Positions 31,582-52,054 of a stretch of 64,000 nt of DNA are shown one piece after another. The notes under the pieces are model-generated. The model was given only the letters and a program-made list of their open reading frames with translations. It searched no databases and was not told the DNA's origin. Both the position numbers and the translations under genes were made by a program. Every line of letters begins with the position of its first letter. Position 1 is the stretch's first letter. This stretch comes from Escherichia phage vB_EcoP_HC-25922. The stretch is from the sequence record OQ555404.1; one strand, written 5' to 3'.

Positions 31582-32403
31582 TTATTCCCAAGTTTTATCT
31601 AACCATGACCAATCAAAGAGGTCACCTTCAGCTTGTCCAACGAAGAGCAATCGAGCGTTTTCTAACATCTTATCTTCTGCTTCTTCCTCGAACCTCTTAT
31701 AGTATTCCATTCGTATAATATGATAAAGAGTCCACTTATCGAATACCTTCTCAATAAGTTTGATTGCAGCCTTGCTACCAATGCCTTTACGGCGCATAAC
31801 CAAGTTGCCACCCCACATCATTTCAACCTTCTCACCACAACCGGGAATATTATCTGTATTATCCCCAATCAACATTTGGTAGAAGAAATTCTGCCATGCT
31901 ACTTCTTCTGATACATAATGAGGAGGTACTTCTTTCTGTCTTTCTCCACAAGCCCAACGATAATGCCATCCGGGAGTGATTAACAAATCTTTATCACGAG
32001 TACAGATAATCGTATTCTTATCTCGTCTCTGTCTTTCAGCTAGGGCATCATCTGCCTCTCTCCCAAAGACTTCTACATACTCGTAATTTTCTTTAATATA
32101 ATCACTAACGTTCTGCCAGTGGTGGGGTCTTTCTCCCGGTGGGCGATTAGCTTTGTAGCCTTGCTGTTTAGCAATGTTAAATCGAAAATTACCACCTTCG
32201 CTGAAGTAAAAGATTGTTTTCTCGCAACCAGACCTTGCAATGATTACATCTATTTTATGCTGAAGTCGTTCAATCAAGAATCCATAATCAACTGGAACAC
32301 GACCTGTGTCTAGAAAAGGATGCTCTTGTGTAAGAGCACCGACTTCATATCGCAGAACATCTGCATCCACAATTGCTACTTCAGGATAGATTACATCAGA
32401 CAT
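31582..32403 (-). CDS. 5'-3' exonuclease / flap endonuclease (FEN, PIN-like)
   Basis: Motifs IVDADVL, GYKANR, EADDALA, TRDKDLL, IGDNTDNIPG, GIGSKAA; start set at ATG 32403 with GGAGAG RBS. Confidence 0.8.
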   Translation of the reverse strand: MSDVIYPEVAIVDADVLRYEVGALTQEHPFLDTGRVPVDYGFLIERLQHKIDVIIARSGCEKTIFYFSEGGNFRFNIAKQQGYKANRPPGERPHHWQNVSDYIKENYEYVEVFGREADDALAERQRRDKNTIICTRDKDLLITPGWHYRWACGERQKEVPPHYVSEEVAWQNFFYQMLIGDNTDNIPGCGEKVEMMWGGNLVMRRKGIGSKAAIKLIEKVFDKWTLYHIIRMEYYKRFEEEAEDKMLENARLLFVGQAEGDLFDWSWLDKTWE

Positions 32404-32992
32404 AGAGTTCTCTCCGTGTCCGTACAACAATCCAGTTTAAATAATCTACTGCATCTTCTACAGTAGAATTATTCGCTAGGTAGTATGTATTTCTCTGACT
32501 GCCTTCAATGTAGGAACGAGAATCTCCTTTAAAATCACAACCTTCACGAATCACCTGAATTACCTGAACATGGAAATGTTTCTCTAGTTCTTCAACTTCG
32601 GCTTTGAACCCACCATCAGAGAAGACGATAACATCATTCTGTGATGGGATACGTTGTTGAATACTGCTAACAGCAAGTTTACCCATGCAGGTCTCACCAA
32701 ACATAGGTTTCAGGTAATCCTCACTAGTTGCAATCATCAAGTCTCGAACTGACTTACCGTCCCATTCAGGACGGCTATGTTCTTTCCACTCACGGTCGTT
32801 GTACAGCTCCATGAACTCATAAAGAGGTAGACCTAATGCAGCAGCAGCCACTCGATATATAGGCTCCTTAAAAGCCTTTACATGCGGCCTAAACTCGGTG
32901 TTACCAAGTGTTTTCTCTAACCAAGAATTAGCGATTGTATCTTTACCACAACCCGGTGGTCCATTCAGAATTACTACTAATGGTTTACTCAT
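32396..32992 (-). CDS. P-loop nucleotide kinase (dNMP kinase-like)
   Basis: Walker A GPPGCGKDT at the N-terminus; 198 aa. Confidence 0.5.
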   Translation of the reverse strand: MSKPLVVILNGPPGCGKDTIANSWLEKTLGNTEFRPHVKAFKEPIYRVAAAALGLPLYEFMELYNDREWKEHSRPEWDGKSVRDLMIATSEDYLKPMFGETCMGKLAVSSIQQRIPSQNDVIVFSDGGFKAEVEELEKHFHVQVIQVIREGCDFKGDSRSYIEGSQRNTYYLANNSTVEDAVDYLNWIVVRTRRELYV

Positions 32993-37988: not shown

Positions 37989-38155
37989 TACTCCCTTTCA
38001 TAAATTTTAAGAACTGTACCGCCATCTGCTTCAATCTGAGCAACTACTTCATCGCGCTCTTTATCAGAATAAACCAGTTGGTTGTGAAATTTGCCTGTAC
38101 TGTCTTGGAAATATACATTCCATTTTGGAGCAGGTTTACGAATCAAATCCATCAT
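37988..38155 (-). CDS. hypothetical small protein (below the track cutoff)
   Basis: 55-aa ORF MMDLIRKPAPKWNVYFQ...; stop overlaps the next start. Confidence 0.3.
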   Translation of the reverse strand: MMDLIRKPAPKWNVYFQDSTGKFHNQLVYSDKERDEVVAQIEADGGTVLKIYERE

Positions 38156-38286
38156 TGATCTTTCTCCTCTCGTTCAACCCATGTACGGAAAAGCTCCCCA
38201 TACACTTTGGCATCATCAAAACGTCCTTCTTCCTGTGCGAGTTTTTGTTGCTTCAAGCACCATTCAGAACTTTTTACTTCTTCCAC
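38153..38286 (-). CDS. hypothetical small protein (GTG start, below the track cutoff)
   Basis: 44-aa ORF with AAGGAGACAAGGAA RBS before GTG; stop overlaps the next start. Confidence 0.25.
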
Positions 38287-38367
38287 TTCCTTGTCTCCTT
38301 AAAAAGAACTAATCAATAAGACTAGTTCATTTCGTAATACGATTCAGCTCTTCCACTGAACTAATCA

Positions 38368-38679
38368 CTACTTCTCCACCACAAAGAGGTTAACTTCAAT
38401 GAAAGTTTCGTATTGTGTTGACTCCTGCTTACGGGTGTAGTAGAAATGACGACCTTCTAATGCACCTCCGTACTGAGTGGCACATCTTTTAACCATCTCT
38501 TTTATCACATCTACAACTGATTCGCCTTTCCACGGACGTAACCCCTGAGTTGGGACTTTTGCTGTACAGGTTACTTGTGTGTAACCTACATCTTGTAGAG
38601 ATATCTCAAGAATCAGCTTTGCCCAAGCATCAAAATTAAGCTTGGGGTTATATTTAACTTCAGTTTTGATATCAATCAT
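38368..38679 (-). CDS. hypothetical protein
   Basis: 103-aa ORF immediately downstream of the polymerase gene. Confidence 0.45.
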   Translation of the reverse strand: MIDIKTEVKYNPKLNFDAWAKLILEISLQDVGYTQVTCTAKVPTQGLRPWKGESVVDVIKEMVKRCATQYGGALEGRHFYYTRKQESTQYETFIEVNLFVVEK

Positions 38680-40526
38680 TAGTGAGTATGATTCCAGTTT
38701 AATCCAATCTTACAATCTGATGCAAGAGGACATTCCATCTTGAGGTATTCCCCTGCTTTACGAACACATTCTTCAGTGAGGGTACGAAGTTTGTTAACAT
38801 CATCACGATGTACAGTGAACTGTCCTTCATCATGCATGTCAATAACCTTCGCACAACGAACACCATCCCGCTCAATCCATTTATTGAGGAATAGCATTGC
38901 ATACTTCATAACAATCGCCCCAGCGCTCTGTAAGAGTGTATTTAAGGCTTTATGGACCATAACCTTTCCAGTTGCATCTCTTCTCATTGTAATACGACGT
39001 CCATCCACACCGTAGATATATCCACTTTGCGCTTTCTCTGTCATACGTTCAATAAGGATTGCAATACAAGGGTTCTCTGCTAAGAATCTTGCTCTCATGA
39101 TAGCCCCTTCGTCAGAGCCACCACCTACAATACTTCCTAACTTAGCGTCACCTGCCCCATAGTTAAAGGCATAGATAAACGTTTTAGCATTATCACGAGT
39201 AGGAAGGCCAGCAAGTTTTTGGTTATGTGAGTGAATATCTCCTTCTAAAAGAATATCTCTATACATAACAGCAGAAGCTAGACCACGTTCAGCTTCTCGT
39301 TTCTTAGCCGGGTTGTTTTCTCGCTCTGCTTCAGCGAGCATCTCACGACATTCTTTAATAAGGTAGTGAGCTAGCATCCTCAGCTCAAGACCAGAGCCAT
39401 CGTAACCTAAGAAGATTTCACGACCAGCAGGAACATAGAACTTATAGGCACCTACGGGTTTGTCTTTCTTGCCCGGTTTTCCCACTTCGTAGATAATGTT
39501 AGTACCCTTTCGTACGTAACACCCATCAGGGATATGGTTGGTAATGATGAAAGGATGGTTATGACTATCGTCTGAGGAATAGTCAGATTGAAAAAGACTG
39601 CGGCACTCGTGACCAAACAAACCGCGAGAAGGAATATTAACAACAATGCGATGTTTAAAACGAAATGTCGGAGTAGCGCAGCTATTAGCTTCGGCGGACA
39701 ACTTACCATCTTTACGTTCCTTGTCGATAAGCCCGCTAATCAAACCTAGCCTGTGAGCCGCTACAACGCGTCTCTTAAGCAAACTTCCTACACCCCCTAG
39801 CTCACCCCCAAGCCCCTCTTCAAGAGTCTCCTCAAGGTTTGTAGGGGCTGTGGGCCACTTGTTTGATGTAGCCAAAGCTTTTTTGATTTCATCAAAGGTT
39901 ACAGGTTTCTTCCTATTCGGATTAAGACCTAAACCACTGACGTAGGCTTTCATGTAGTTGACAGTGTGATAACGGAAATGTTTATCCAAAAATCTTCGGA
40001 TATCAGCATCTATCATCTCCGCTGTCTGTTTCTCTTTAGCATTACCTCGAATCCAAGCAGAATACCATGCAGAGTATGTACCATACTTCTTCATAGCTCT
40101 ACGGATTTCAAATGTATTCCAAGGTTTCTTAGAATAATTCCACTCTGGAGGTATGAAGCCCTCATCCATCAAGGCTTCTTTAATACGTGCATCTTTCGAT
40201 GGGTCGAAGTCTACATACTCAACGCAAGTAAACGCCCCACCGATATCTTCTCTTTTAAGACCAACCCTATCGCAATAGAGCTGAGGCCACTTCTGTAAAG
40301 CACCTGATTTCTTAAAAGGCTTAGCATAAGTTGAACCATCCACCCGCATTTTAGGGAGGAGAGGAATCAGTTCTTTATCAATATTGACAATAATCTCTTT
40401 GAGAAGGTGAACAAACCACCGAGCGTTTCTTCTGTTGAAGTTGACTCCATGCTTCGCTTGTTTTGAGATTATATCAGCGACTGTCATCTCCGTTATGAAA
40501 GGTAACTTATCAGGGTTATCCATCAC
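38679..40526 (-). CDS. DNA polymerase, family A (Pol I-like) polymerase domain only
   Basis: Motif A DGSGLELRMLAHY, motif B RDNAKTFIYAFNYGAG, motif C HDEGQF; no exonuclease motifs in the N-terminal region. Confidence 0.85.
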   Translation of the reverse strand: MMDNPDKLPFITEMTVADIISKQAKHGVNFNRRNARWFVHLLKEIIVNIDKELIPLLPKMRVDGSTYAKPFKKSGALQKWPQLYCDRVGLKREDIGGAFTCVEYVDFDPSKDARIKEALMDEGFIPPEWNYSKKPWNTFEIRRAMKKYGTYSAWYSAWIRGNAKEKQTAEMIDADIRRFLDKHFRYHTVNYMKAYVSGLGLNPNRKKPVTFDEIKKALATSNKWPTAPTNLEETLEEGLGGELGGVGSLLKRRVVAAHRLGLISGLIDKERKDGKLSAEANSCATPTFRFKHRIVVNIPSRGLFGHECRSLFQSDYSSDDSHNHPFIITNHIPDGCYVRKGTNIIYEVGKPGKKDKPVGAYKFYVPAGREIFLGYDGSGLELRMLAHYLIKECREMLAEAERENNPAKKREAERGLASAVMYRDILLEGDIHSHNQKLAGLPTRDNAKTFIYAFNYGAGDAKLGSIVGGGSDEGAIMRARFLAENPCIAILIERMTEKAQSGYIYGVDGRRITMRRDATGKVMVHKALNTLLQSAGAIVMKYAMLFLNKWIERDGVRCAKVIDMHDEGQFTVHRDDVNKLRTLTEECVRKAGEYLKMECPLASDCKIGLNWNHTH

Positions 40527-40539
40527 CCACTCCTTATAG

Positions 40540-40893
40540 TTATTGGTATATTAAGTCTGTGAATGCTTGGTTGTCTTCAACAATATCTAAAGCTTCATAT
40601 GAATCAGCCAATTCATCCACATAAAAGACTGCTGGAATATCTTCTGCTCGCTGTCTACGAGATTCCCTTTGTTCATTGATATTTCTTTGAACCTGTGCAA
40701 GTTTCATACCCCACACCTGCTCATACAACTCTGGATATTTGTCACTAACCACTACATAATTTCGAGCTGGTTGGTTTCTATTAATCTTCGCTGTCAACTC
40801 AATAAACTGGCGAAACTCTTGAATAGAGAGGTTGTCATGAATATTATCCCATTTGAGAACGCAGTGACGTTCTAGGCGTTGAGGTACTGGCAT
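40540..40893 (-). CDS. hypothetical protein
   Basis: 117-aa ORF. Confidence 0.45.
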   Translation of the reverse strand: MPVPQRLERHCVLKWDNIHDNLSIQEFRQFIELTAKINRNQPARNYVVVSDKYPELYEQVWGMKLAQVQRNINEQRESRRQRAEDIPAVFYVDELADSYEALDIVEDNQAFTDLIYQ

Positions 40894-40896
40894 AAC

Positions 40897-41154
40897 TTAC
40901 TCCACTGTCGGGAATGGTTTTAGGTTGTTCATGGCTGTACGAACATCAGCACAGATTTCAGGATCACGATAAGAGAGGAATTTACCATCCTTACCACGAA
41001 TCATTACATTAGTCCGTGCTGTTTTATTAGGCAATAAAGAAATCCCTCCAATAAGATGGTTGGTAGGGTGTTGTCCTTGATTAACCTTGTAGTCATGAGT
41101 CTGAGCGTCACCGTTAAAGAGATGATCACGAATTTGGATTAAGCTAATCTTCAT
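40897..41154 (-). CDS. small protein, tandem paralog 2 (NKTARTNV...DGKF...NLKPFP family)
   Basis: Start at MKISL; shares core NKTARTNVMIRGKDGKFLSYRD...NLKPFP with the upstream gene. Confidence 0.45.
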   Translation of the reverse strand: MKISLIQIRDHLFNGDAQTHDYKVNQGQHPTNHLIGGISLLPNKTARTNVMIRGKDGKFLSYRDPEICADVRTAMNNLKPFPTVE

Positions 41155-41155
41155 A

Positions 41156-41407
41156 TTATGCACCAAAGTTAGGGAAAGGTTTCAGATTTTCAATAGACTT
41201 AGCAATACGCTTAGGAACAGCCTTATCACGGAAGGAGATGAACTTTCCATCAGGACCACGAAGGGCTACATTAGTACGAGCTGTTGTTTTGTTAAACTGA
41301 ATCATCTCAACAGAGCTTGTAACATTTTCTACAGGAAAAGTATAGCTCTCAGTTGTGTTCAGAGAAGGGAGGAAATCAGTTACAGTGATGTAAGTTACTT
41401 TAGACAT
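41156..41407 (-). CDS. small protein, tandem paralog 1 (NKTTARTNV...DGKF...NLKPFP family)
   Basis: Start ATG 41407 with AAGGTAA RBS. Confidence 0.45.
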   Translation of the reverse strand: MSKVTYITVTDFLPSLNTTESYTFPVENVTSSVEMIQFNKTTARTNVALRGPDGKFISFRDKAVPKRIAKSIENLKPFPNFGA

Positions 41408-41427
41408 ATTTATTACCTTAGGTTCTA

Positions 41428-41458
41428 TAAAAGAAAAGGCCACCCGAAATGGGTAGCC
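41428..41458 (-). terminator. hairpin terminator (ggcuaccc-auuuc-ggguggcc plus U-run)
   Basis: Third copy of the GCCACCCGAA hairpin family. Confidence 0.45.
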
Positions 41459-41463
41459 TTATA

Positions 41464-41781
41464 TCAACTTGAGCTTAAAGCTCCTTTGCGACCGCCTGCT
41501 GATTTTCCAGCACGATCTCCACTTTTGCCGCCGTTCGAGCGATTTCGAGAGACTGATTCAACACGTAAGTTACTTGACGCATTAGAACCTCCCGACTTGA
41601 TTGATCGTTTGTGTCCAACATCTTTACCTCGGACAGCAGCTTTTCCATCGCGCTTTTCAACGATGCGACGTGCACGGTGGCGCTGAGCATCTCCGCTCTT
41701 GCTACCAACGCCGGTCTCACCCCTTGCGATTGCAGTTCTTCGTTCTTGTGCATAATCACGTTTCGCCTTATCGTTCATCAT
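41464..41781 (-). CDS. small highly basic G/S/K/R-rich protein (possible nucleic-acid-binding)
   Basis: ATGATG start with AAGGAG RBS 5 nt upstream; 105 aa; a second almost fully overlapping ORF exists in another frame. Confidence 0.4.
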   Translation of the reverse strand: MMNDKAKRDYAQERRTAIARGETGVGSKSGDAQRHRARRIVEKRDGKAAVRGKDVGHKRSIKSGGSNASSNLRVESVSRNRSNGGKSGDRAGKSAGGRKGALSSS

Positions 41782-41825
41782 AACTCCTTAATATATCAGT
41801 GTACACTAAGGAGTATACATTATGT

Positions 41826-42563
41826 TTATGATTTTTCAGATTCCATTGCTTTAACAATAGCTTTACAGAAACCTGAACGAACAATATCATCTGATTCGCC
41901 ATCTACTAGAGCGGCAAATTCAAATAACTGGTGACGGTAGATGAAATCAGTAGCCCAATCAAGACCGCTCTCACCACGCATGTCGTGCTGGTTAGTGTCC
42001 CCCATGCAGAACATCTGAGAGGTTTCACCAAGACGTGTCATGATTGAATATGCTTCATCAGGAGTAGTGTTCTGGAACTCATCAACAATCACGATAGCAT
42101 CGTTGAACGAGCGACCGCGTAGATATTCCAGAGGTACGAACTCAATATTACCATTACCTACTTGACATTCGTAGAAACCTTTACCGTAGCGCTGAGTAAT
42201 AACATCAACGATTGGCATTAGGTATGGTTCAAACTTCTCACGAAGCCCACCGGGAAGTAATCCAAGACTATTACCCATACCAACAGCAGGTCGGCTTAGG
42301 ATAATCTTCTCAATCTTCCCACTCTTCAGAGCATCAATCACTGTAGAAGTGATTACGAAGGTCTTACCACAACCAGCAGGAGCATCTGTGAATACAACCT
42401 GTTTGGTTTTAATTGCATCAAGCAGCTCACTCTGGAATTGGTTCTGAGGTACTACCGGCTTAGCAAGAACTACTTCTTCAAATTCCCGCTTTCCTTTCTT
42501 GGTGACGAGAGCTTCACGACGTAATTCTCTCCGTGATGCTTTCCGAGATTCTCTACGACTCAT
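41826..42563 (-). CDS. phoH: PhoH-like ATPase
   Basis: Walker A GCGKTF in a PhoH-like context; GGAGGTAGGAA RBS. Confidence 0.8.
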   Translation of the reverse strand: MSRRESRKASRRELRREALVTKKGKREFEEVVLAKPVVPQNQFQSELLDAIKTKQVVFTDAPAGCGKTFVITSTVIDALKSGKIEKIILSRPAVGMGNSLGLLPGGLREKFEPYLMPIVDVITQRYGKGFYECQVGNGNIEFVPLEYLRGRSFNDAIVIVDEFQNTTPDEAYSIMTRLGETSQMFCMGDTNQHDMRGESGLDWATDFIYRHQLFEFAALVDGESDDIVRSGFCKAIVKAMESEKS

Positions 42564-42741
42564 TTCCTACCTCCGTGTTCTTCATATAAGAAGCTACAGG
42601 ATTTACACTCTGAGCAATGGATACCTATAACCTTAATTTCGACAAACTTCTTATTCTTCCCTTTAGTCGGGGAGCCTTTGGCAAGCTCCCGTATTACTTT
42701 CGAGTCCAAATGGAGAAGAGTTGATTCACATTTAAAACATT

Positions 42742-43062
42742 TCAGATTGATTTGTCCTTATGTAAACGGTATACTTCAGTAGCCATACAAGCTATACGCT
42801 CGTCATGTGGGAGATGCATACCAGTAGAGCCGTTCCATCCTTCGAACTCTGAATCAAAGAATCCAATAGGCTCGGGATACATCTCTTGCAAGGTGGTTAA
42901 GTCATCAGCCACTTGTTGCCACTTATCGTCAGACCAGATTGGGTCATCCAACCAATAATACAAATAGGAGTGGATAAGCATCTGTGTTCTATGTCGTTTA
43001 ATCACTTCAGCAGGACTGATTTCATTTCCGTTACCAGTCCTAAATGTATTATTGTTGATCAT
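42742..43062 (-). CDS. hypothetical protein
   Basis: 106-aa ORF. Confidence 0.4.
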   Translation of the reverse strand: MINNNTFRTGNGNEISPAEVIKRHRTQMLIHSYLYYWLDDPIWSDDKWQQVADDLTTLQEMYPEPIGFFDSEFEGWNGSTGMHLPHDERIACMATEVYRLHKDKSI

Positions 43063-43538
43063 TCCAAAACCCTTTCTTCTAAATCATAAAAGATTTGATT
43101 TGTCCCATTATTCTCAACAAGCACTGTTCCATTATCTAGCAGGGTAGCAACTTGGGAATAAGGAATGTTCTTTAACATCAGAGCATTAATGGTCGGCTTG
43201 TTTTTGAAGTAAGCGACAGGCTCAACATAGAAGGAAATCCCACGACTTCCTTTAATTGGGGTGCTTGAAGATAGAACCCAAATTGTTTCTGGCTTGTCTA
43301 TTTCCTTTTCAACACCAACCTCAACAAGAGAGTCAGCAGCGAAACCTACAGGACGCCTAGAAGAACCAAGCAACCGAACATATCCCGGTAATTTTGACAT
43401 ATTAGACCAACTACCAGTGTTTTCATTAAACACAGGTCTTACATCACCATATGCCCAAACCAGATTATCATAGTCACGGGCTATGTATTTAACCCAATCA
43501 GGAACATCATACTCCCTTCCTTCAAAAATAGCTTTCAT
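43059..43538 (-). CDS. hypothetical protein
   Basis: 159-aa ORF. Confidence 0.45.
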   Translation of the reverse strand: MKAIFEGREYDVPDWVKYIARDYDNLVWAYGDVRPVFNENTGSWSNMSKLPGYVRLLGSSRRPVGFAADSLVEVGVEKEIDKPETIWVLSSSTPIKGSRGISFYVEPVAYFKNKPTINALMLKNIPYSQVATLLDNGTVLVENNGTNQIFYDLEERVLE

Positions 43539-43766
43539 TTAGATAACCTTGTGCTTATAGATGTTAGGGTTGTAGTAATGCAACCAGTTTATGTATTGCT
43601 TCTGTTCGAGGTAGTGCCTGCAATCATGACAAAAAGCATGACCCAAACCTGTTTCCTCGTTCAGCTTGAAATTGATAAGAAGCTTCTGCTTTCGACAGAA
43701 GCTACATGCTTTAGTGGGCTTCACGTAATGCATCCCAAGAGATTGGATATATTTTACGAAGCTCTT
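43539..43766 (-). CDS. Cys-rich small protein (zinc-finger-like)
   Basis: CSFCRK...CHDCRH cysteine pairs; start moved to an internal Met to limit overlap with thyX. Confidence 0.35.
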   Translation of the reverse strand, partial: KSFVKYIQSLGMHYVKPTKACSFCRKQKLLINFKLNEETGLGHAFCHDCRHYLEQKQYINWLHYYNPNIYKHKVI

Positions 43767-44361
43767 CATCAATGGTTGATGCGAACACTCGTACTTCGTA
43801 CTGAGCATGGTCTGACAGTCGCTGACGACACAACTCTGACCAACCATATAGAGAACCGGTCCATACCCACTCAGTGATCATACCCTGAGGTAATACGAAT
43901 CGAGCTTGTTCTGGAGCAATGAACTTAATCAATTCATCATACGACTCAAGAGCTGTTTCATATGCTCGGTTAATCAGAACTAGTGCAGAGTTTTGTGCTC
44001 CTGTGGTGAGGAGATTCCCTGCACCTGCATGGAGGTCCGAAGGTCTTTCAAAAATCTCTTTAGGGATGAAGAGTTCAACTGCTCCATCTTTATACCGCCG
44101 GGACATTTCGTTCCACGAGAATCCAACTTGATGCTTGCCCAGCTGTCTCGCAATTGCGATTGGCGCTTTGCATCGGAAGCTAATTGTCGGATGGCGGAAT
44201 GGTGTGACATGCTTTTCTCTGGCAAGGAACTTGATAAGGCGTTCATCTCGTTCATTTAACTCTCCTTCACGAGTAACCCCAAAGGAAACTCGAGCTGCAT
44301 TAACAACAGATTTATCAGAACCCATTGCTTCAATTAGTGTTGCTTGTAATTGTTCGTTCAT
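43711..44361 (-). CDS. thyX: FAD-dependent thymidylate synthase ThyX
   Basis: ThyX signature RHPT...SWNEMSRRY (RHR...S motif). Confidence 0.8.
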   Translation of the reverse strand: MNEQLQATLIEAMGSDKSVVNAARVSFGVTREGELNERDERLIKFLAREKHVTPFRHPTISFRCKAPIAIARQLGKHQVGFSWNEMSRRYKDGAVELFIPKEIFERPSDLHAGAGNLLTTGAQNSALVLINRAYETALESYDELIKFIAPEQARFVLPQGMITEWVWTGSLYGWSELCRQRLSDHAQYEVRVFASTIDEELRKIYPISWDALREAH

Positions 44362-44375
44362 CCTTGAATTCTTCC

Positions 44376-44591
44376 TTAGTAATGAATCTTTTTATAAATC
44401 AGGTTGCTTCCACTTTCTGTTTCAATCCCTTTCTGGATTGTAATCTTAGAAGCACCGGTATTAGCAATTTTTAAAGCTCGTTTAAAGCGGCGAGCCTCTC
44501 TCCGTGTTGTGTATGAGGAGAAGCTAGGGATTGTACTATCAAAATTAAACCACTTAACTACCCAAAAAGTAATCCAAGGTTTCTTTTCCAT
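44376..44591 (-). CDS. small protein, family A member 1 (W..W...TRxEAR...KxxY family)
   Basis: 71 aa; shares W-rich N-terminus, TRREAR and C-terminal KKIHY with two other ORFs. Confidence 0.45.
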   Translation of the reverse strand: MEKKPWITFWVVKWFNFDSTIPSFSSYTTRREARRFKRALKIANTGASKITIQKGIETESGSNLIYKKIHY

Positions 44592-44592
44592 A

Positions 44593-44868
44593 TTAAATAC
44601 CTTTCAGAGCTGTATCTAAAAACGCACGGAGGTTTGATTCAGTTTGCATACCGGACAAGCTGTAGTGAGCACCACTGTTCATGTTAGGAACCACAAAGGC
44701 TGGGATACTGCGAACACCATATTCAATGGCTCGCTCTCGACCATCACCTTCAGAGATATTTACTTCTTCAACTTCTACGTTGTAATCAGCTACAACTTTC
44801 TTAAACACAGGAGCCATAGCTGCACATGGAGCACAGGAATTACTATAAAACTTAATTACTTTACTCAT
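44593..44868 (-). CDS. thioredoxin/glutaredoxin-like protein
   Basis: CxxC active site (SNSCAPCAAM); start set at MSKVIKFY with AAGGA RBS. Confidence 0.65.
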   Translation of the reverse strand: MSKVIKFYSNSCAPCAAMAPVFKKVVADYNVEVEEVNISEGDGRERAIEYGVRSIPAFVVPNMNSGAHYSLSGMQTESNLRAFLDTALKGI

Positions 44869-45058
44869 TTTATTCCTTGTTAATAAACAGATTGATATGA
44901 CGCTGGGTAGCAGGAACAACAATAAAAGACTTATACTGCCCTTTTGCTAAATCATGAGCAATCTTCTTTGTCTGACCAAGACCCATCACACAGCCACTAA
45001 CGATAATGGCATGTGCTTGTAATTCTTCAGGTAGGTTTAGTTTCACTCTTTGGGTTCC

Positions 45059-45244
45059 TTATAGCATACAAAGAATAATAACAAGAGGTAGTGTTATAGC
45101 AAAATGTACCAGAACAACACTACCCAGCTTGATAGCTTTAACATCCTCTTCTGCTGGGTTTTCTTTAATTGCTAAATTTCGAGCTTTATATATAACAGTA
45201 CCAACTATTAACGACCACACGGCCCACACAATCAGTGAAATCAT
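45059..45244 (-). CDS. small membrane protein (family B, intact copy)
   Basis: 61 aa, two hydrophobic segments flanking KENPAEED. Confidence 0.45.
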   Translation of the reverse strand: MISLIVWAVWSLIVGTVIYKARNLAIKENPAEEDVKAIKLGSVVLVHFAITLPLVIILCML

Positions 45245-45253
45245 ATCAAACCC

Positions 45254-45440
45254 TCATGCAGTCAACAGGTGGAGAAGGAAAGGAATGACAACAGAGAAGA
45301 CTACCAGAGCAATGCTGCCATGTTTAATGGGTTTAGCGTCATTCGGGTTCTCTTTAAGCATCTGTTTCTGAGCTACATAAACGATACCGCCAACAAAAAA
45401 TTGCCCATACAGACCATACGATTGCTGAAAACATACTCAT
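45254..45440 (-). pseudogene. family B paralog disrupted by a frameshift in a T6/A6 homopolymer
   Basis: ATG 45440 with AAGGA RBS; reads MSMFSAIVWSVWAIF then stops; one frame over continues VGGIVYVAQKQMLKENPNDAKPIKHGSIALVVF, paralogous to 45059..45244. Confidence 0.4.
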
Positions 45441-45497
45441 ATCCTTATAAAGAAGTTCGCCCCACCTCTTGAACAAAGAGACAGGGCGGAGGTTTGA

Positions 45498-46073
45498 TTA
45501 GTAAGACACATCACCACTGGAGTGGGACATGTTGCTCTTGACGAAGTAACAGAACTTGCCAAGACCTTCATTAATTTCTTGAAGCATACTCTGGTCCACT
45601 GGATAGGTGCACAAGTCTGAATCAAACTCATCCATCTTCTCAATGATACACATAAGAGTCATGCACATGTCGGAAAGCATACCGTCCATGTCAAGATCAG
45701 CGTTACCTTCTCGGAACCAAGCATGACCTAAATAATTACTAGCAGTAGCATCCACTTTAACACAATGAAAGCGCATACGCTCTGCTATTCGGTCGCCTGC
45801 CTCACGAGCATAATCTTCTAGTTCATCGAACATACCATGAACACCTTGGAAACCAGCTCCAGAGACGTTCCAGTGGTAGTTCTTTGCTTTGATGTGTAGA
45901 AGTTCAAGGTTAGCTTGCACACCACACAAGATGTGTTCTAAACTGTTACCGCTAATCAGTTTATTCATTCCCTCAAGACGAGAGATAGAAGAGTCAGTAG
46001 TAGAGAATGGGTTGCTAGAACCCACTCGTGTTAGTTCTGGTAAGTCGAAGACATTATTATGCATTAGGTGCAT
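45498..46073 (-). CDS. Dps-like ferritin-superfamily protein
   Basis: Dps signature KNYHWNVSGAGFQGVHGMFDELEDYAREAGDRIAERM (HWNV.G..F...H..FEE...D.IAER). Confidence 0.7.
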   Translation of the reverse strand: MHLMHNNVFDLPELTRVGSSNPFSTTDSSISRLEGMNKLISGNSLEHILCGVQANLELLHIKAKNYHWNVSGAGFQGVHGMFDELEDYAREAGDRIAERMRFHCVKVDATASNYLGHAWFREGNADLDMDGMLSDMCMTLMCIIEKMDEFDSDLCTYPVDQSMLQEINEGLGKFCYFVKSNMSHSSGDVSY

Positions 46074-46404
46074 CCCCTTCTAAGTTAGTTGAATTAGCTA
46101 CATTACGAGCAATGTTATCCATGACCTGCTGTGTAATAACAATACAATTCTGAGGGTCTACTGATTTAGAACGCCCCATCTCAGGGTCATAGACTTTGAC
46201 TCGCTTGGCTGTTGAGCCAGTAACTTGCAACACTTTGAGAAGATAGCCTTGGTTTCCAATAGACCATGCAACAACATCACGATTCTTGATATAACGACCA
46301 AGCATGTCACGATGATAGAACTGCTGCATAACTTTAGCTTTGCTAATCTCTTCAGATGGCGGGGCCACTTTACTCAAATCTAACATAACTCTCTCCTGTT
46401 TCAT
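46057..46404 (-). CDS. hypothetical protein
   Basis: 115-aa ORF. Confidence 0.45.
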   Translation of the reverse strand: MKQERVMLDLSKVAPPSEEISKAKVMQQFYHRDMLGRYIKNRDVVAWSIGNQGYLLKVLQVTGSTAKRVKVYDPEMGRSKSVDPQNCIVITQQVMDNIARNVANSTNLEGDAPNA

Positions 46405-46456
46405 ACAATATTCTTATACTGTATATACATTTGAGAGTTATCATATCTACTACCAA

Positions 46457-46672
46457 CTAGTAATAAACCTTGCTGGATATGAATCCAGCACTGTTATGGA
46501 TATTTTCAATCCAACGATGAATCTCCACCTTTTCAGCGATTCCTAAAGCTTTTGTAGCTTTTATAGTTTTCTTAGCAAGACGAGCCTCTTGTCTTGTGTT
46601 GAATAATTGAATACAATCACCACCAAGAGCTTTGTTAGCCCATTTAGTACGAACTGCCCATAATTTATCCAT
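46457..46672 (-). CDS. small protein, family A member 2
   Basis: 71 aa; TRQEAR and C-terminal SKVYY conserved with members 1 and 3. Confidence 0.45.
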   Translation of the reverse strand: MDKLWAVRTKWANKALGGDCIQLFNTRQEARLAKKTIKATKALGIAEKVEIHRWIENIHNSAGFISSKVYY

Positions 46673-46884
46673 TAGTAATGTACCTTTCCGCTGATATAGA
46701 AACGACCTGATTTAAAGTCTTGAGCTTTGTGGATAGTGATCTTATTAATTGTGCTTTCACAACTTAATAAGAACTTCTTATGAGCGCGAGCTTCTTGACG
46801 GGTATTCCTAATACCCATTGACTCTGTACCACTGCTCCAGTGAATACGAACTACCCAACGTCTTTTCATTGTTCCAAACTCCAT
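46672..46884 (-). CDS. small protein, family A member 3
   Basis: 70 aa; TRQEAR and C-terminal GKVHY; tandem with member 2. Confidence 0.45.
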   Translation of the reverse strand: MEFGTMKRRWVVRIHWSSGTESMGIRNTRQEARAHKKFLLSCESTINKITIHKAQDFKSGRFYISGKVHY

Positions 46885-47075
46885 TATCTGTCAACCGATT
46901 TAGGGACAAACTGCATTACACAGACCTGACTACGAGGGAGATTTATTTCACAAGCGGCTCTTCTCGTCTCAATCTTAACGCTAGAATCTGGACCAACGTT
47001 AGATATAAATACTCCCATAGCAAATGCCCCAACTACAAAACCTATAGCTAAGTAAGTAGCTTTTTCTTCTTTCAT
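46884..47075 (-). CDS. small membrane protein
   Basis: 63 aa with hydrophobic segment YLAIGFVVGAFAMGVFI. Confidence 0.35.
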   Translation of the reverse strand: MKEEKATYLAIGFVVGAFAMGVFISNVGPDSSVKIETRRAACEINLPRSQVCVMQFVPKSVDR

Positions 47076-47080
47076 CTTGG

Positions 47081-47614
47081 TTATACACCCTTAGATGCAA
47101 CTACACCATTACTGCCGTTGTATCGACCCTTCACTGCATAAGAGTCATCACCAGCGTGAGAGTGTTCGAACATAACCATTTGACCAACACGCATCCCAGC
47201 ACGAACTCGTAAGCTATGATTATGGGTAACGTTATGAAATTCAAAGGTTAGTTTACTGCTGTTAAACCCTGCATCAGCCCAACCAGCATGGAGGTGGTTT
47301 AAACCACAACGAGCCATTGAGGAGCGAAGTACAAACAGGCTTGAGATGTTATCTGGAAGGTTAAACTCTTCCATTGAGTGCGCTAAGAAGAATTGCCCCG
47401 GAGTGATAACAATACCATCTTCAGGGATTTTTACTTCTTTCCACTTGAGGTTTTCTTTAGCATCAATGTCAACAATTCCGTCAGCCTGTTCTTCAACAAG
47501 GATAGTATCACCAATACGGATATCCACGCTAGCAGCGTTAACATATTTATGCTCCGCATCTAAAAAGCCATTATCAATAACGCTGTGTAATTCTTGAGAA
47601 CCTAAAAGACTCAT
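47081..47614 (-). CDS. dCTP deaminase (dUTPase superfamily)
   Basis: VDIRIGDT and GWADAGF...LTFEFHN...GQMVMFE match dCTP deaminase/dUTPase signatures. Confidence 0.75.
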   Translation of the reverse strand: MSLLGSQELHSVIDNGFLDAEHKYVNAASVDIRIGDTILVEEQADGIVDIDAKENLKWKEVKIPEDGIVITPGQFFLAHSMEEFNLPDNISSLFVLRSSMARCGLNHLHAGWADAGFNSSKLTFEFHNVTHNHSLRVRAGMRVGQMVMFEHSHAGDDSYAVKGRYNGSNGVVASKGV

Positions 47615-49074
47615 GAGTTTCTGTTTCCTTGTACAGATGATGCCAAATTATTAATCATGTTACGAGCTGTTTCACGAGATAGTGTAACACCTGCTAAGTT
47701 GTTATGAAGCTCACCAGATAGCTCACGAGCAGCAGCTCGAAGTTCTGTACCAAGTGTAGTATCGGAGTGAGCCAAACCATTACGACGACTATAAGGTCGA
47801 GGAGCTTCGTTAGCGTCATTAGCCAATGATGCAAAACCAATATGAGCAGCTTCACGAGCCGCTATAGTTGACACTCGATCTTCCGTAGGGGTTGGCAAAT
47901 CACCAACTTCTACACGTTCTATATCACCAGCACGTAGACCCTGAACGACTGAGCTTACTGTTTCCCATGAACGACGAGAACGCTGTAAATCACCCATTGA
48001 CGGAGAAGAAGCAGGTCGAACAGTTACTCCACCTGTATCATGAGTGACATGCCATGTACGAGTATCCATTCCAGAAGAGCGTGCACTACCAAAACTGCCA
48101 GTGAAAGTGTCACGAGGTGCCATTGTAGGAGGAACTGCGAATCTTTCCTGTTGCCAAGAATCGCGTCTGTTAGTTCCCGGAGTCCAAGGCTGCGTGATTG
48201 CTTCAGCACCTATAGTGGTTAATCCGCTAGACCATTCTGTCTGTAGGTTAACTTCCTCGTCCAGATAACTACGACCCCTTTCCTGAGGAATGTTTAATAT
48301 AGTTTCCATCATCTTCAGGGTATAATGACGACGCTGATTCTGATATAAATTTACACCAGCCATAGGTCCAACTAAATCACTAATCAGGTGAACTTCTGGC
48401 TCACCGAAAGCTCCCATTGCAAGGTGCATATATTCGATAGAACTGCTATAAACTGCAACAGTTGCTTCAGGCCACTTTTTGTGAACATACTTCATTTCAC
48501 GACTAGATACCACAGGAATGTCACGAGTGTATGACATTGCAAACAAACCTTCGTTTGACACATACATGTCATCAAGAGACATGAACCCCTGACAGATCAT
48601 AGGAAAGCGACGGCTTAAAGTATCCATATCCAAAGGTAGATTAATCATCATCTGGATTTTAACTTGATCAATCTCAATTTCCAGAATCTCTTGGAAAGTG
48701 AAAAGTGATTCAGTATAGGTTGTTCCACTGATAGGCTGAACTAGTCGAGATGTAACTTGAAGCCCCTTACTCTCTGTCCAAGACAAGAAGTTGTCAAGGA
48801 ATAGTGCAGCATTACTTACGTTAGCAGGGCTGTTTTCCTGACGAGTGTTCCAACGGAACCCTCCTTGAACTAGGAAGATATCAACATCATTCGGAGTTCG
48901 ATTTTGGAAGAACGTATCACGGATAGCACCACCTGCAATGACAGGATAGATACCATCAGGGACTACGTTATCTCTGATCAGATTGCGAATCAGATCAAGC
49001 CCTACGCTGAGGGCTTCTCCTTCTTGAAGGTTTAATTCAGACAATGGAATCTTAATCATTTCTACATTTTCCAA
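47611..49074 (-). CDS. Pol-beta-superfamily nucleotidyltransferase (CCA-adding enzyme or poly(A) polymerase-like head) with low-complexity C-terminal region
   Basis: AGGAIRD plus 9 aa plus DVD matches the GGxVRD...DxD head motif of tRNA nucleotidyltransferases; C-terminal 200 aa S/T/R/A-rich. Confidence 0.5.
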
Positions 49075-49610
49075 TTTAGAGATGGGGGATTCTTATAATC
49101 AAATCCAGCCATTTGACAAAGACACATGTAAACTTTAACTGTCAAGTTAACGTCTTGCTCACAATAGGTGAACATGTCTTCAGTGAATGCGTCCCATGCC
49201 TCCTCCTGTTCTCCATAATCTCCTTTCAGCTCCCCAAGAAACTCGCCCCATTGTTTGAGGCCGTGACCACGAGGGCCATGTCTAGGGTCGCCTTTGGGGT
49301 ATTCTGGACTATCACCAATACGGTCAGGCTTGAGATATCTACTCAGGCACAAAGTATCGAAGACGTTAAAGCGAAAAGGTATCACATGAGAATAAAACTT
49401 AAACAAAGCAGGAAGGTCAAAATCAATAATATTGTGACCTATTACTACATCAGCTTCTTTCAGTTTGTGTAGTGCTTCTTCAATTTGGTGAGGGCGATAC
49501 CCCCACCGCTCTCCAGATAATACATCAAATATCCAGATACACCAGACATTCTGAATACCATCATAGAGATTATCCCCCTCGATATCAAACGCATACAGTT
49601 TCTTTACCAC
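49062..49610 (-). CDS. 3'-5' exonuclease (DnaQ-like proofreading domain), separate gene
   Basis: Exo I FDIEGD, Exo [10 protein letters not shown], Exo III YCEQDV. Confidence 0.65.
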
Positions 49611-51394
49611 GGACGTGCCTCCCCTTCTTGTGCAAGTAAGGAAGCTGCATCCTCTCCATTGGTAACGGTAAAAGGATGCTCTTCATCAACTTCATGATCT
49701 TCTCGTTCTACAAGACGACCTGTTTCATTGATGTATTTGGTATAGCAAACCCCTGTCTGTCCATAGTTACGCTCTTTGAGCAGTCGTATGATTGACAAGT
49801 TTTTACCTAACCCATCCGCTTGTTTATTACGTTCAAAACCAATAATACACTGACACCAGCGCATCAATGAACGTGAACCAGTAAACTGTACTTCTTTAAC
49901 CTGACCACCTTCTTCGTGGGGTGCACCACCTGCCGGAGCGTTCAAGTGAGATAATACAAAAGCAGTGAAGTCTAATTCCTTACACATACCAGCAAGCTCT
50001 GAAGCAATCTTGCTGATTTCTGTGTTTACCTCAGATGGGGTTAAGTGAGATACCAATGCAGTGATGTTATCAAGAATGATAAATTTACACTGATTCTCAA
50101 CTACCCAAAAGCGAATACACTGCTTAATGTCTTCCCACTCGTTCTGCCCAAAGTTGTCATACAAGAAAAACTTATCAGCGTATCGAAGTGCTTCATCTCG
50201 TAGCTGGCTTTCTTCGTACTCAACATCTGGTCGGTGGAATGGAATAGATGCAGATTTACCTGCAATGTTCTTAACAGACATGCCTACCTTCTCTTCCAAG
50301 AAGAAGCCACCACCATTAAAACCATGCTCAAGGCAAAGCCATGCTACTAGTTCGTGTGCGATTAAGGTTTTACCTGAACCAACACCACCGCCGATTGCAA
50401 CCATCTCTCCCCAACGAATACCAAAGGTCATGTCGTTAAGAGTTTTCCACGGATAAGGAATACCCCATTCCGCTTTCTTCAGAGCATCTTCGAGGCAATC
50501 AAAAACTGTAACAGCTCCAGCAGGGGATTCCCGCTTAGCTGAATATTTCAGATTGTTGAAAAGCTCTTGACCTCTCCCTGCAAGTAACATGTCGTTTGCA
50601 TCTTTGATTTCCTTTTCTTGTCCGTTATAAGTGAACGTACCTTTTGGAATCCTTGCAAACTTAACATGCGGGTACAGAGAACGACCCTTAGTTAAAGCAA
50701 TCTCACCTGCATCATCATTGTCCATGCAGAGTACAATCTCCTCGAAACCATTAATAAAATCACGGTTTCTTGATAATACAGAAGAGATTGAACCTGCACC
50801 GAACGGAAGAGAGACGCAAGCAGGTTTGATGTTAGTTGCGTTTGTAAACGCGGTAAGTACGTGGAACCCAGACATACAAGAGAGAGGATCTTCAAAGATG
50901 AAGAGTTTCTTGTTGTATACGTCACCACGTTGTGCTTGAGCCATACCAAACAAGTCGGCTTCTTTCACATTACCTACATAATAGAACTTCTTGCTGTCTA
51001 GAAGTTTTACTTCATATCCAACAATGTTCCCATCACGTTCACGAGGGAAGAAGTAGCTGTCAGGAGTTTGACCATCTGTTTGGCTTAAACCGATACGGCA
51101 TCCATAACGTTCAGATACAGCTTTAGGGATTAAGCGACGAGTCAACTCTCCCTGAGGAAGCTCTAAGCAATCGTCTAAGACTTCTCGGAGTTCTTCAGGG
51201 GACAGCTCTTTCTTTTCATTAGGAGTGGGCGTCGTTCCTTTCTCGAAGATTTCATACGCACCACATCTGTTACATGAACCCCACTCCTCACCGGACTCTT
51301 CATTTCGGAAGAGAATCATGTGATTGCGGGTCTTATCACGACCATGAGAGATACACTCTTTACAGCCCGTGTCTCCCAAAATGATCTTTGACAT
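49604..51394 (-). CDS. primase-helicase (zinc-binding and TOPRIM-like N-terminus, DnaB-like helicase C-terminus)
   Basis: N-terminal Cys cluster CKEC...CNRCG; [16 protein letters not shown]-like acidic motif; Walker [10 protein letters not shown]. Confidence 0.75.
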
Positions 51395-51429
51395 GCTCTA
51401 TCCTCCTTGGAATTCCTTGAGCAATCTTC

Positions 51430-51636
51430 TTAGTAAAACGATCGTATTTCTTCCCACACATCATCTTGCAAGTTTCTAAAACCCTGCAAGGTTTGCTTTG
51501 TTCTGTGAATAAATTCTTCAGAGTGCTTATCAGGTGTGAGCATACTGACAAACTTTTCATAGCGATTAATCTTCCACCGCATCTTCAAGTAGTCAGATTC
51601 CAGCTTTCTTAACTTCTGCCTGTCAGTTACTGTCAT
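51430..51636 (-). CDS. hypothetical small protein
   Basis: Internal start ATG 51636. Confidence 0.35.
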   Translation of the reverse strand: MTVTDRQKLRKLESDYLKMRWKINRYEKFVSMLTPDKHSEEFIHRTKQTLQGFRNLQDDVWEEIRSFY

Positions 51637-52054
51637 CCTTCTCACCTGCCAGATATGCTGTCCAGTCACCAGATTCAACCAGAACATCTTGTTCTTCGTC
51701 GATGTGATAAATCCACGCTTCCACAGTTTCACCGCTGTCCAATAATACTGGAATCAGTGTACGCTTGTAAAAGGTGTATGGGTTATCATTACCACGATGA
51801 CCTTCCAGACCGTCATACGGACCTTCCAGACCAGCTTGGGTTGTTTCAAAGACTTCTACACGAACAGGCTTACCGTTGCTGTCATGCTCCAAAGATACAC
51901 TTGGGAAGTATGCTGTGCAATACTGATACAGGTTACAGTTGTTTACTGTCCACCCTTCACCAATAGACACACCACCTGCACGAGCATTGATAGCGTGGTT
52001 GTGTTGACCTTTACGAAGAGAACCATACGTTGCAACTAATACTTTATCAGACAT
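51623..52054 (-). CDS. gamma-glutamyl cyclotransferase-like (AIG2/GGCT family) protein
   Basis: N-terminal VLVATYGSLRKGQHNH matches the YGSL(R/K).G motif of GGCT/AIG2/YtfP enzymes; AAAGGTAA RBS. Confidence 0.65.
   Translation of the reverse strand: MSDKVLVATYGSLRKGQHNHAINARAGGVSIGEGWTVNNCNLYQYCTAYFPSVSLEHDSNGKPVRVEVFETTQAGLEGPYDGLEGHRGNDNPYTFYKRTLIPVLLDSGETVEAWIYHIDEEQDVLVESGDWTAYLAGEKDDSN

Follow-up and report, generated by a model that had tools for sequence, protein, structure and literature searches.

The window, as we call the whole stretch of 64,000 nucleotides analysed here, comes from Escherichia phage vB_EcoP_HC-25922 (OQ555404.1), a Gordonclarkvirinae phage of E. coli (phiEco32-like, Suseptimavirus). 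It is 99.1% identical to Escherichia phages vB_EcoP-101114UKE3 and IME267 over 13.5 kb, and its DNA identity to phiEco32/Kuravirus-like members is 80–99%. At 38679..40523, on the minus strand, lies a gene for a T7 gp5-like DNA polymerase of family A, with thumb, palm and fingers but no exonuclease. The open reading frame given in the first-pass annotation (38679..40526) is present and starts at a GTG one codon outside the ATG at 40523. The ATG is more likely to be the start judging by its context; an AAGGAG Shine-Dalgarno sequence lies 6 nt upstream of it, and the polymerase of RefSeq relatives is annotated at the resulting length of 614 amino acids, which is the numbering used below. Pfam DNA_pol_A (PF00476) matched residues 363–612 (4.5e-24; 85.5 bits against a cut-off of 34.3 bits), T7 gp5 matched at 5e-33, and positions 837–1233 of phrog_17 were also matched. 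Motifs A, B and C are present in the right order for a family A polymerase of the T7 gp5 type: D375/E380 of motif A (DxxGxE), R443/K447/Y451 of motif B (Rx3Kx3Y/F-G) and H564-D565-E566 of motif C (HDE) align with D475/E480, R518/K522/Y526 and H653-D654-E655 of T7 gp5, respectively. An AF2 model (pLDDT 89.1) has the right-hand fold of family A polymerases; its best 27 Foldseek matches were T7 polymerase chains (E from 1e-25, TM 0.47–0.60), and Bst, Taq and M. smegmatis Pol I ranked next.

An exonuclease domain within the same polypeptide is not required of family A polymerases generally, and the window polymerase lacks the 3'-5' exonuclease domain that T7 gp5 has. Pfam gave no match to an exonuclease family, PF01612 included, at E<=0.01. 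Since aligning the profiles of the exonuclease and polymerase families with hhalign also found nothing (probability 0.14%), no exonuclease is hidden in the N-terminus; collinearity with fused homologues, in which the N-terminus aligns just past the exonuclease domain, speaks against it as well. Among the best 120 homologues of the polymerase (369–618 amino acids), none had an exonuclease-domain match. The first-pass description of a polymerase with motifs A, B and C and without exonuclease motifs is thus borne out by Pfam, by the T7 gp5 alignment and by hhalign.

A second gene, at 49062..49610, is also on the minus strand, the strand of neither gene having been given in the first-pass annotation. 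It encodes a stand-alone 3'-5' exonuclease of 182 amino acids, and the DnaQ-like motifs ascribed to it earlier are indeed complete and of the DEDDy type. The motifs FDIEGD, GHNIIDFD and YCEQDV start at residues 8, 58 and 149; within them Exo I (DxE) is D9-I-E11, Exo II (Nx2-3[F/Y]D) is N60-I-I-D-F-D65 and Exo III (Yx3D) is Y149-C-E-Q-D153. Residues D9/E11/D65 align with D5/E7/D65 of T7 gp5, so that the catalytic residues of T7 gp5 have their equivalents in the two window proteins one for one. The match to Pfam DNA_pol_A_exo1 (PF01612) is marginal (3.2e-5; 24.2 bits against a cut-off of 23.6 bits). The PHROG families give stronger matches: phrog_38876, named "DNA polymerase exonuclease subunit", at 2.6e-67 and phrog_403 at 3.1e-37, which places the protein in the exonuclease subunit group of the phiEco32/LUZ24 type. 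The protein also matches phrog_17 (positions 670–826) and is 100% identical to an EK010 protein annotated "DNA polymerase".

The sole matches to the exonuclease in a sequence search of the PDB (E<=1) were to residues 4–142 of T7 gp5. Its AF2 model is confident (pLDDT 92.6) and has an RNase H-like fold, and the top 27 Foldseek matches were all to the exonuclease domain of T7 polymerase (TM up to 0.73); most of the matches ranked below them were to the proofreading domains of polymerases from family B or from elsewhere in family A. RNase T, oligoribonuclease and Pol III epsilon, which are DEDDh enzymes with an Hx4D motif, were absent from the 50 Foldseek matches listed; with a Yx3D Exo III and with both the PDB and the fold searches against them, they can be discarded, and the earlier concern that the small protein might cluster with RNase T or oligoribonuclease falls away. 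It groups with polymerase exonuclease domains and, on alignment and model, corresponds to the proofreading domain at the N-terminus of T7-type polymerases. Residues D9, E11, H59, N60, D65, Y149 and D153, the five catalytic residues among them, do not vary across 18 stand-alone homologues with identities as low as 35%, and 31 columns in total are likewise invariant. The 36 homologues collected are all 105–208 amino acids long (163–208 in 35 of them), and the gene is kept from E. coli phages to phages of Pseudomonas, Vibrio, Aeromonas and Proteus.

The exonuclease gene directly follows a gene for a T7 gp4-like primase-helicase of 596 amino acids (49604..51394, minus strand), which matched phrog_239 at 5.9e-175 and, in Pfam, DnaB_C at 2.7e-10 as well as Toprim_2. 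The overlap noted earlier between the two genes measures 7 nt (CC GTG GTA A), the GTG start of the exonuclease lying over the final codons of the primase-helicase gene, and a GGGGAGG Shine-Dalgarno sequence is found 7 nt upstream of this GTG. The stop/start overlap suggests that the translation of the two genes is coupled. The distance from the exonuclease gene to the polymerase gene, put at about 8.5 kb in the first-pass annotation, is 8,535 nt. The interval (40540..49074) holds about 22 genes on the minus strand as judged from Pfam and from the RefSeq annotation of a 99%-identical genome, in which 22 are annotated; they include those for a nucleotidyltransferase, a dCTP deaminase, a Dps/ferritin-like protein, a thioredoxin, ThyX and PhoH. 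The block is neither an intron nor an intein, and no Rfam family was found in 38000..52000. Because the minus strand has two terminator-like hairpins between the genes (45488..45458 and 41460..41436), the exonuclease and the polymerase may not be co-transcribed. A promoter scan was uninformative, with 19 sites where 29.2 would be expected by chance.

Two other genes of the region may bear on replication. The thioredoxin gene of the block (44593..44922 as a maximal open reading frame, 44593..44868 in the annotated homologue; minus strand; PF00085 at 2.2e-12) encodes a protein that is a candidate for the processivity factor of the T7-like polymerase. The processivity factor of T7 polymerase is the thioredoxin of the host, whereas the thioredoxin of the window is encoded by the phage, and a processivity role for thioredoxin has been proposed for the related phage Privateer (PMC7881722). 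A separate 5'-3' exonuclease, FEN-like and equivalent to T7 gene 6, is encoded at 31582..32430 (maximal open reading frame, minus strand). Its Pfam matches are below the curated cut-offs (5_3_exonuc_N at 2.7e-6, 5_3_exonuc at 3.6e-4), its RefSeq homologue is labelled "exonuclease", and a separate 5'-3' exonuclease subunit has been described in PMC9965538. It constitutes a third nuclease/polymerase piece of the replication module.

Comparison with relatives, as the first-pass annotation had proposed, did reveal fused homologues, with which both proteins are collinear. Residues 4–173 of the exonuclease align with residues 2–158 of the fused proteins, and residues 6/12–614 of the polymerase align with them from residue 162/171 to the end; the N-terminus of the polymerase therefore starts directly after their exonuclease domain. 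Both proteins match the same fused family, phrog_17, in the two segments given above, and 93 of the 150 best profile matches of the exonuclease have, in addition, a polymerase domain at the C-terminus that is homologous to the window polymerase. Because of this collinearity, the break can be placed at the boundary between the exonuclease and polymerase domains. Among solved structures, T7 gp5 is the best relative of either half; it is a single polypeptide in which the two domains are fused, whereas the window has two genes. The gene order is that of T7, with primase-helicase, polymerase and 5'-3' exonuclease in succession.

The order primase-helicase, exonuclease, other genes and polymerase, all on the same strand, is kept as far as the LUZ24-like phages of Pseudomonas, while the gap varies from 2.3 kb in LUZ24, 5.6 kb in Privateer and 3.2 and 2.3 kb in two metagenomic contigs to the 8.5 kb observed here. 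The exonuclease gene comes directly after the helicase gene in all five of these lineages; the two overlap here and in two other lineages, and the exonuclease starts 8–9 nt past the helicase in the other two. In every lineage examined, the exonuclease co-occurs with an exonuclease-less polymerase. These polymerases form one clade, sister to a fused polymerase, in a neighbour-joining tree that is midpoint-rooted, carries no bootstrap support values and is indicative only.

The split is an already published and annotated trait across this phage group, and it is accordingly ordinary for the group. It was reported for phiEco32 in 2008 (Savalia et al., as cited in PMC3517423); for the LUZ24 group it has been described as "DNA polymerase part I/II", with the parallel to phiEco32 drawn (PMC3517423); and in 2023 it was described in all Kuravirus-like phages (PMC9965538). 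With these reports and the PHROGs family name preceding it, the novelty implied in the first-pass annotation does not hold. The arrangement is seen in about 100 independent phage genomes. The phiEco32/Kuravirus-like phages (Swiss-Prot DPOL_BPE32 and EXO74_BPE32; YF01 gp49 and gp70) have the same genes, order and split, and the window differs from them in nothing of substance except that its polymerase is free of the group I intron or HNH insertion seen in some relatives. In LUZ24-like Pseudomonas phages (Bruynoghevirus), "DNA polymerase part I" is the exonuclease and "part II/III" the polymerase. As in the window, the stand-alone exonuclease stands right after the primase-helicase, with the polymerase downstream. 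The LUZ24-like polymerase is 40–42% identical to that of the window over its full length, but it is shorter (about 545 amino acids), with shorter versions of the insertions treated below, and in LUZ24 itself it is additionally broken by an endonuclease-containing element.

The earlier structural reading, a polymerase-only gene with a separate DnaQ-like exonuclease of the proofreading type, stands. The best reading of these comparisons is that one ancient fission gave rise to a proofreading subunit that is active and encoded separately. As a whole, the explanation that the window belongs to a phiEco32-like phage in which an ancient fission at the exo/pol boundary gave rise to a two-subunit proofreading polymerase is considered probable. 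The fission would have cut a replicative T7-type family A polymerase exactly between its 3'-5' exonuclease and polymerase domains. The exonuclease half would have stayed at the old 5' end of the ancestral gene, after the primase-helicase and translationally coupled to it, and the polymerase half would have come to lie 8.5 kb downstream on the same strand, beyond nucleotide-metabolism and other accessory genes. The 182-residue protein would fold alone, bind the polymerase non-covalently where the exonuclease domain of T7 gp5 sits, and remove misincorporated 3' nucleotides passed on by the polymerase. Such a two-subunit proofreading polymerase would follow a logic analogous to that of Pol III alpha plus epsilon. 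In the E. coli Pol III core, the polymerase (alpha) and the DnaQ proofreading exonuclease (epsilon) are separate polypeptides that act as a complex, and by analogy a complex may be expected of the window pair, likewise a polymerase and a DEDD-type 3'-5' exonuclease on separate polypeptides. However, alpha belongs to the unrelated family C and the window polymerase to family A, epsilon is DEDDh and the window exonuclease DEDDy, and the alpha-epsilon complex has been demonstrated, whereas the window pair is known from sequences and separate models.

We infer that the exonuclease is likely a trans-acting proofreading subunit. The other possibility raised in the first-pass annotation, a polymerase without proofreading, is disfavoured by the invariance of the five catalytic residues and by the co-occurrence in every lineage examined. 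One version of it, in which the exonuclease is active but independent of the polymerase (in recombination, end processing or host DNA degradation, for example) and the polymerase has no dedicated proofreading, appears unlikely. The 8.5 kb and the terminator-like hairpins between the genes would suit it, as would the literature searched, in which no interaction data and no experiments on association of the pair or proofreading in trans were found; yet the protein corresponds exactly, with nothing added, to the fused T7-type proofreading domain, the co-occurrence is seen both in same-length contig pairs and on direct inspection, and the phage already has a separate 5'-3' exonuclease for processing. 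Because the exonuclease gene is coupled to the helicase gene and not to the polymerase gene, a different partner is conceivable. The primase-helicase could carry the exonuclease into the replisome, there to proofread or trim primers, as its adjacency in five of five lineages and a coupling that favours equimolar synthesis would allow. This is quite unlikely, however, as the adjacency is more simply a remnant of a T7-like order in which gene 4 is followed by gene 5, exonuclease domain first, and as fused exonuclease domains align with the protein from one end to the other, with no visible helicase-binding element.

That the exonuclease is a decaying remnant, leaving the polymerase effectively without proofreading, would agree with a Pfam score barely over the cut-off, but it is very improbable in view of the catalytic residues and other columns invariant down to 35% identity, the confident model, the good Shine-Dalgarno sequence before the gene and the retention of the gene across phages of the hosts named above. 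It is hardly credible that trans-splicing by a split intein, or splicing of an intron, rejoins the halves, or that the split is an artefact of sequencing or annotation. Relatives do have a group I intron and homing endonucleases inside the polymerase gene. In the window, the 182-residue exonuclease and the N-terminus of the polymerase are wholly covered by homology to fused proteins, and since the broken ends are fully explained in this way there is no room for intein halves. The lack of an Rfam match in 38000..52000 and the 22 functional genes of the interval also argue against a rejoined gene, which was rejected, and the recurrence of the split in so many independent genomes argues against an artefact.

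The polymerase also differs from T7 gp5 in having about 87 additional residues in the stretch that corresponds to T7 residues 360–411 and about 44 just before motif A. The first insertion (about residues 131–220) forms a helical module about 90 amino acids long and the second (about residues 315–365) a beta-rich one of about 45. Both are present in every exonuclease-less polymerase sampled and absent from T7 and from all 40 fused relatives; no description of two insertions confined to this clade was found. A tentative and rather doubtful proposal is that they evolved as a non-covalent docking platform for the detached exonuclease, or for the phage thioredoxin or the helicase.

As a genome feature, the split changes little, being documented in phiEco32-like and LUZ24-like phages and in annotation resources. 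Its remaining value is biochemical, and nothing relevant on the biochemistry of the split pair was found in the literature searched: the proofreading domain of a T7-type polymerase has been detached naturally and in an evolutionarily stable way. With this pair one could study how a family A polymerase passes a mismatched primer to a non-covalently attached exonuclease, and it could give an engineerable exo-plus/exo-minus polymerase pair. The clade-specific insertions offer a concrete entry point to the question of primer hand-over and, if they do serve for docking, proofreading in the exonuclease-less clade would be dissociable and so potentially regulated.

Both ORFs named in the first-pass annotation, which had proposed a family A DNA polymerase and its proofreading exonuclease split over two genes, are present on the minus strand. 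The 615-codon ORF at 38679..40526 matches Pfam DNA_pol_A (4.5e-24) only over aa 363–612, and a Pfam search at E ≤ 0.01 detected no exonuclease family in it. The more probable start is the ATG at 40523, giving 614 aa, because the upstream sequence reads AAGGAG-TGGGTG-ATG; the polymerase of RefSeq relatives is annotated at 614 aa. The best matches in a PDB sequence search were T7 gene 5 polymerase (5e-33), and alignment to T7 places D375 of motif A on D475, R443/K447/Y451 of motif B on R518/K522/Y526 and H564-D565-E566 of motif C on H653-D654-E655. The polymerase active site is intact. All 27 best Foldseek matches of the AlphaFold model (pLDDT 89.1) were T7 polymerase, with E from 1e-25. Profile-profile comparison of the exonuclease and polymerase families revealed no similarity (probability 0.14%), which together with the Pfam result rules out an exonuclease hidden in the polymerase.

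The separate 182-codon ORF (49062..49610, minus strand) matches DNA_pol_A_exo1 (3.2e-5; 24.2 bits, the cut-off being 23.6). Its product belongs to two PHROG families with the name 'DNA polymerase exonuclease subunit', phrog_38876 (2.6e-67) and phrog_403. Its 5' end overlaps the primase-helicase gene (49604..51394) by 7 nt, so that the final Trp and stop codons of the helicase overlap its GTG start, and a Shine-Dalgarno sequence, GGGGAGG, is found 7 nt upstream within the helicase coding sequence; translational coupling to the helicase gene is suggested. The primase-helicase C-terminus (49604..49700, minus strand) has an acidic tail and a terminal aromatic residue (...EDHEVDEEH...EGEARPW, then stop), resembling the tail of T7 gp4, which is acidic, ends in Phe and binds the polymerase. 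In a PDB sequence search with the exonuclease, the sole matches at E ≤ 1 were residues 4–142 of T7 polymerase, with D9/E11 on D5/E7 and D65 on D65. The top 27 Foldseek matches of its AlphaFold model (pLDDT 92.6) were T7 polymerase (E ~1e-10, TM ≤ 0.73). Those next in rank were mostly proofreading domains, from polymerases of family B or from others of family A, and the 50 matches listed contained no RNase T, oligoribonuclease or epsilon. An RNase T or oligoribonuclease identity is rejected on the PDB sequence matches at E ≤ 1 and on these 50 Foldseek matches. The reported split stands, because neither exonuclease motifs in the polymerase N-terminus nor a grouping of the small protein with these nucleases was found.

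Together the two proteins sum to one fused T7-type polymerase without gap or overlap, since both are collinear with fused homologues. In four of these, exonuclease aa 4–173 correspond to residues 2–158, and the polymerase aligns from aa 6–12 at residues 162–171 and on to the C-terminus, so that the break sits at the boundary of the two domains. On phrog_17, a large fused-polymerase family, the exonuclease covers positions 670–826 and the polymerase 837–1233, adjacent and without overlap. Searching 1.84 billion representative proteins with a profile built from 18 stand-alone exonucleases gave 4,488 matches; the best 150 comprised 49 proteins below 300 aa, 23 of 300–499 aa and 78 of at least 500 aa, the last with an N-terminal exonuclease match, and 93 of the 150 also showed homology to the window polymerase in a C-terminal domain. 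Full coverage of both proteins by fused homologues leaves no space for split-intein halves. An Rfam search of 38000..52000 detected neither an intron nor any other RNA family, and the window polymerase gene is uninterrupted. Among relatives, a group I intron (RF00028, 102 bits) lies in the polymerase gene of a metagenomic relative (L008 4354..4617), after residue ~454 at motif B; in phage SU7 (L002 2453..2929) an HNH endonuclease gene is located close to the 3' end of the polymerase gene, and in LUZ24 (L004 13078..13494) 'part II' and 'part III' are separated by an endonuclease. Such interruptions are a phenomenon distinct from the exonuclease-polymerase split.

Along its whole length, the segment 38000..51500 shares 99.1% identity with Escherichia phages vB_EcoP-101114UKE3 and IME267, and ~98 phage records match it, nearly all of E. 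coli or Shigella phages in the phiEco32-like subfamily Gordonclarkvirinae. A RefSeq relative has 22 CDS between the two genes and already labels each of them as 'DNA polymerase' or 'DNA-directed DNA polymerase'. The sign of the GC skew flips at ~30 kb in the window, where plus-strand structural genes give way to replication and early genes on the minus strand. A distance of 8,535 nt separates the exonuclease gene from the polymerase gene, and two strong terminator-like hairpins in between (45488..45458 and 41460..41436, minus strand; stems of 13 and 10 bp, each with a T-rich tail) suggest that the two genes belong to separate transcription units. The intervening minus-strand genes include a thioredoxin (44593..44922; PF00085, 2.2e-12), which may be a processivity factor since the polymerase is T7-like, a role already hypothesised for phage Privateer. 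A ferritin/Dps-like ORF (45498..46073, minus strand; PF00210, 7.3e-8) has homologues labelled 'integrase' in NC_070982, which looks like a mis-annotation, and 'DNA-binding protein' in SU7. Directly downstream of the exonuclease is a 487-aa 'nucleotidyltransferase' (47611..49074, minus strand; phrog_12715, 1.2e-165) with no match in a Pfam search and a long, Ser/Arg/Gly-rich C-terminal half of low-complexity appearance.

The gene order GGACT, primase-helicase, exonuclease, variable block, polymerase, 5'-3' exonuclease is kept among relatives, the block measuring 2.3 kb in LUZ24, 5.6 kb in Proteus phage Privateer, 3.2 and 2.3 kb in two metagenomic contigs and 8.5 kb in the window. In T7 the order is gene 4, gene 5, gene 6. 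The conserved arrangement is that of T7 with material inserted within gene 5, the exonuclease apparently retaining its ancestral position beside the helicase gene. Exo-less homologues of the polymerase occur in Aeromonas, Vibrio (Vp_R1) and Pseudomonas LUZ24-like and tf phages (36–50% identity, full length). A neighbour-joining tree without support values (284 conserved palm and fingers columns; 25 exo-less and 40 fused polymerases) grouped all 25 exo-less polymerases in one clade, nested among the fused ones as sister to fused P0206, whose nearest isolates are marine T7-like podoviruses; this tree fits a single fission. A 2012 paper (PMC3517423) has reported polymerase and proofreading exonuclease as separate genes in all LUZ24-group phages; according to that paper, which cites Savalia et al. 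(2008), the organisation in phiEco32 is similar. GenBank labels LUZ24 gp25 'DNA polymerase part I', and the label of the exonuclease homologue in Privateer, 'DNA polymerase exonuclease subunit', refers to Swiss-Prot EXO74_BPE32. Since the split is already published and annotated, it is a correct re-discovery, with nothing new as a genomic feature.

The first-pass annotation had offered either a trans-acting subunit or a polymerase without proofreading; the former is favoured and the latter disfavoured. The DEDDy active site is intact, and alignment of 18 of 36 homologues shows no variation at D9, E11, H59, N60, D65, Y149 or D153, which argues for a functional enzyme under purifying selection; a decaying remnant is less likely. 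All 36, found by word-indexed search down to 32% BLASTP identity, stand alone (35 of 163–208 aa, one of 105 aa), and none of the best 120 polymerase homologues (369–618 aa) has an exonuclease-domain match. Matches to the two proteins pair by contigs of equal size (81,643, 88,363, 100,903, 112,127 and 20,510 nt), and co-occurrence of the two genes is strict. A free-standing nuclease working independently of the polymerase is less likely, as is one tethered to the helicase. A literature search found no experimental test of exonuclease-polymerase binding or of proofreading in trans.

The exonuclease would bind the polymerase non-covalently, at the place of the fused domain, and proofread for it in trans, in the same manner as epsilon with alpha of Pol III. 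Exo-less polymerases carry a helical insertion of ~90 aa (aa 131–220 of the window polymerase) and a beta-rich one of ~45 aa (aa 315–365) directly before motif A; a third of ~25 aa (aa 391–415) occurs in about half of the exo-less sequences sampled, presumably those of the phiEco32-like branch. None occurs in T7 gp5 or in the 40 aligned fused relatives, and all are predicted with high confidence as well folded in the AF2 model. Being restricted to the split clade, these insertions, which may be novel, are candidates for a surface on which the detached exonuclease or the phage thioredoxin would dock.
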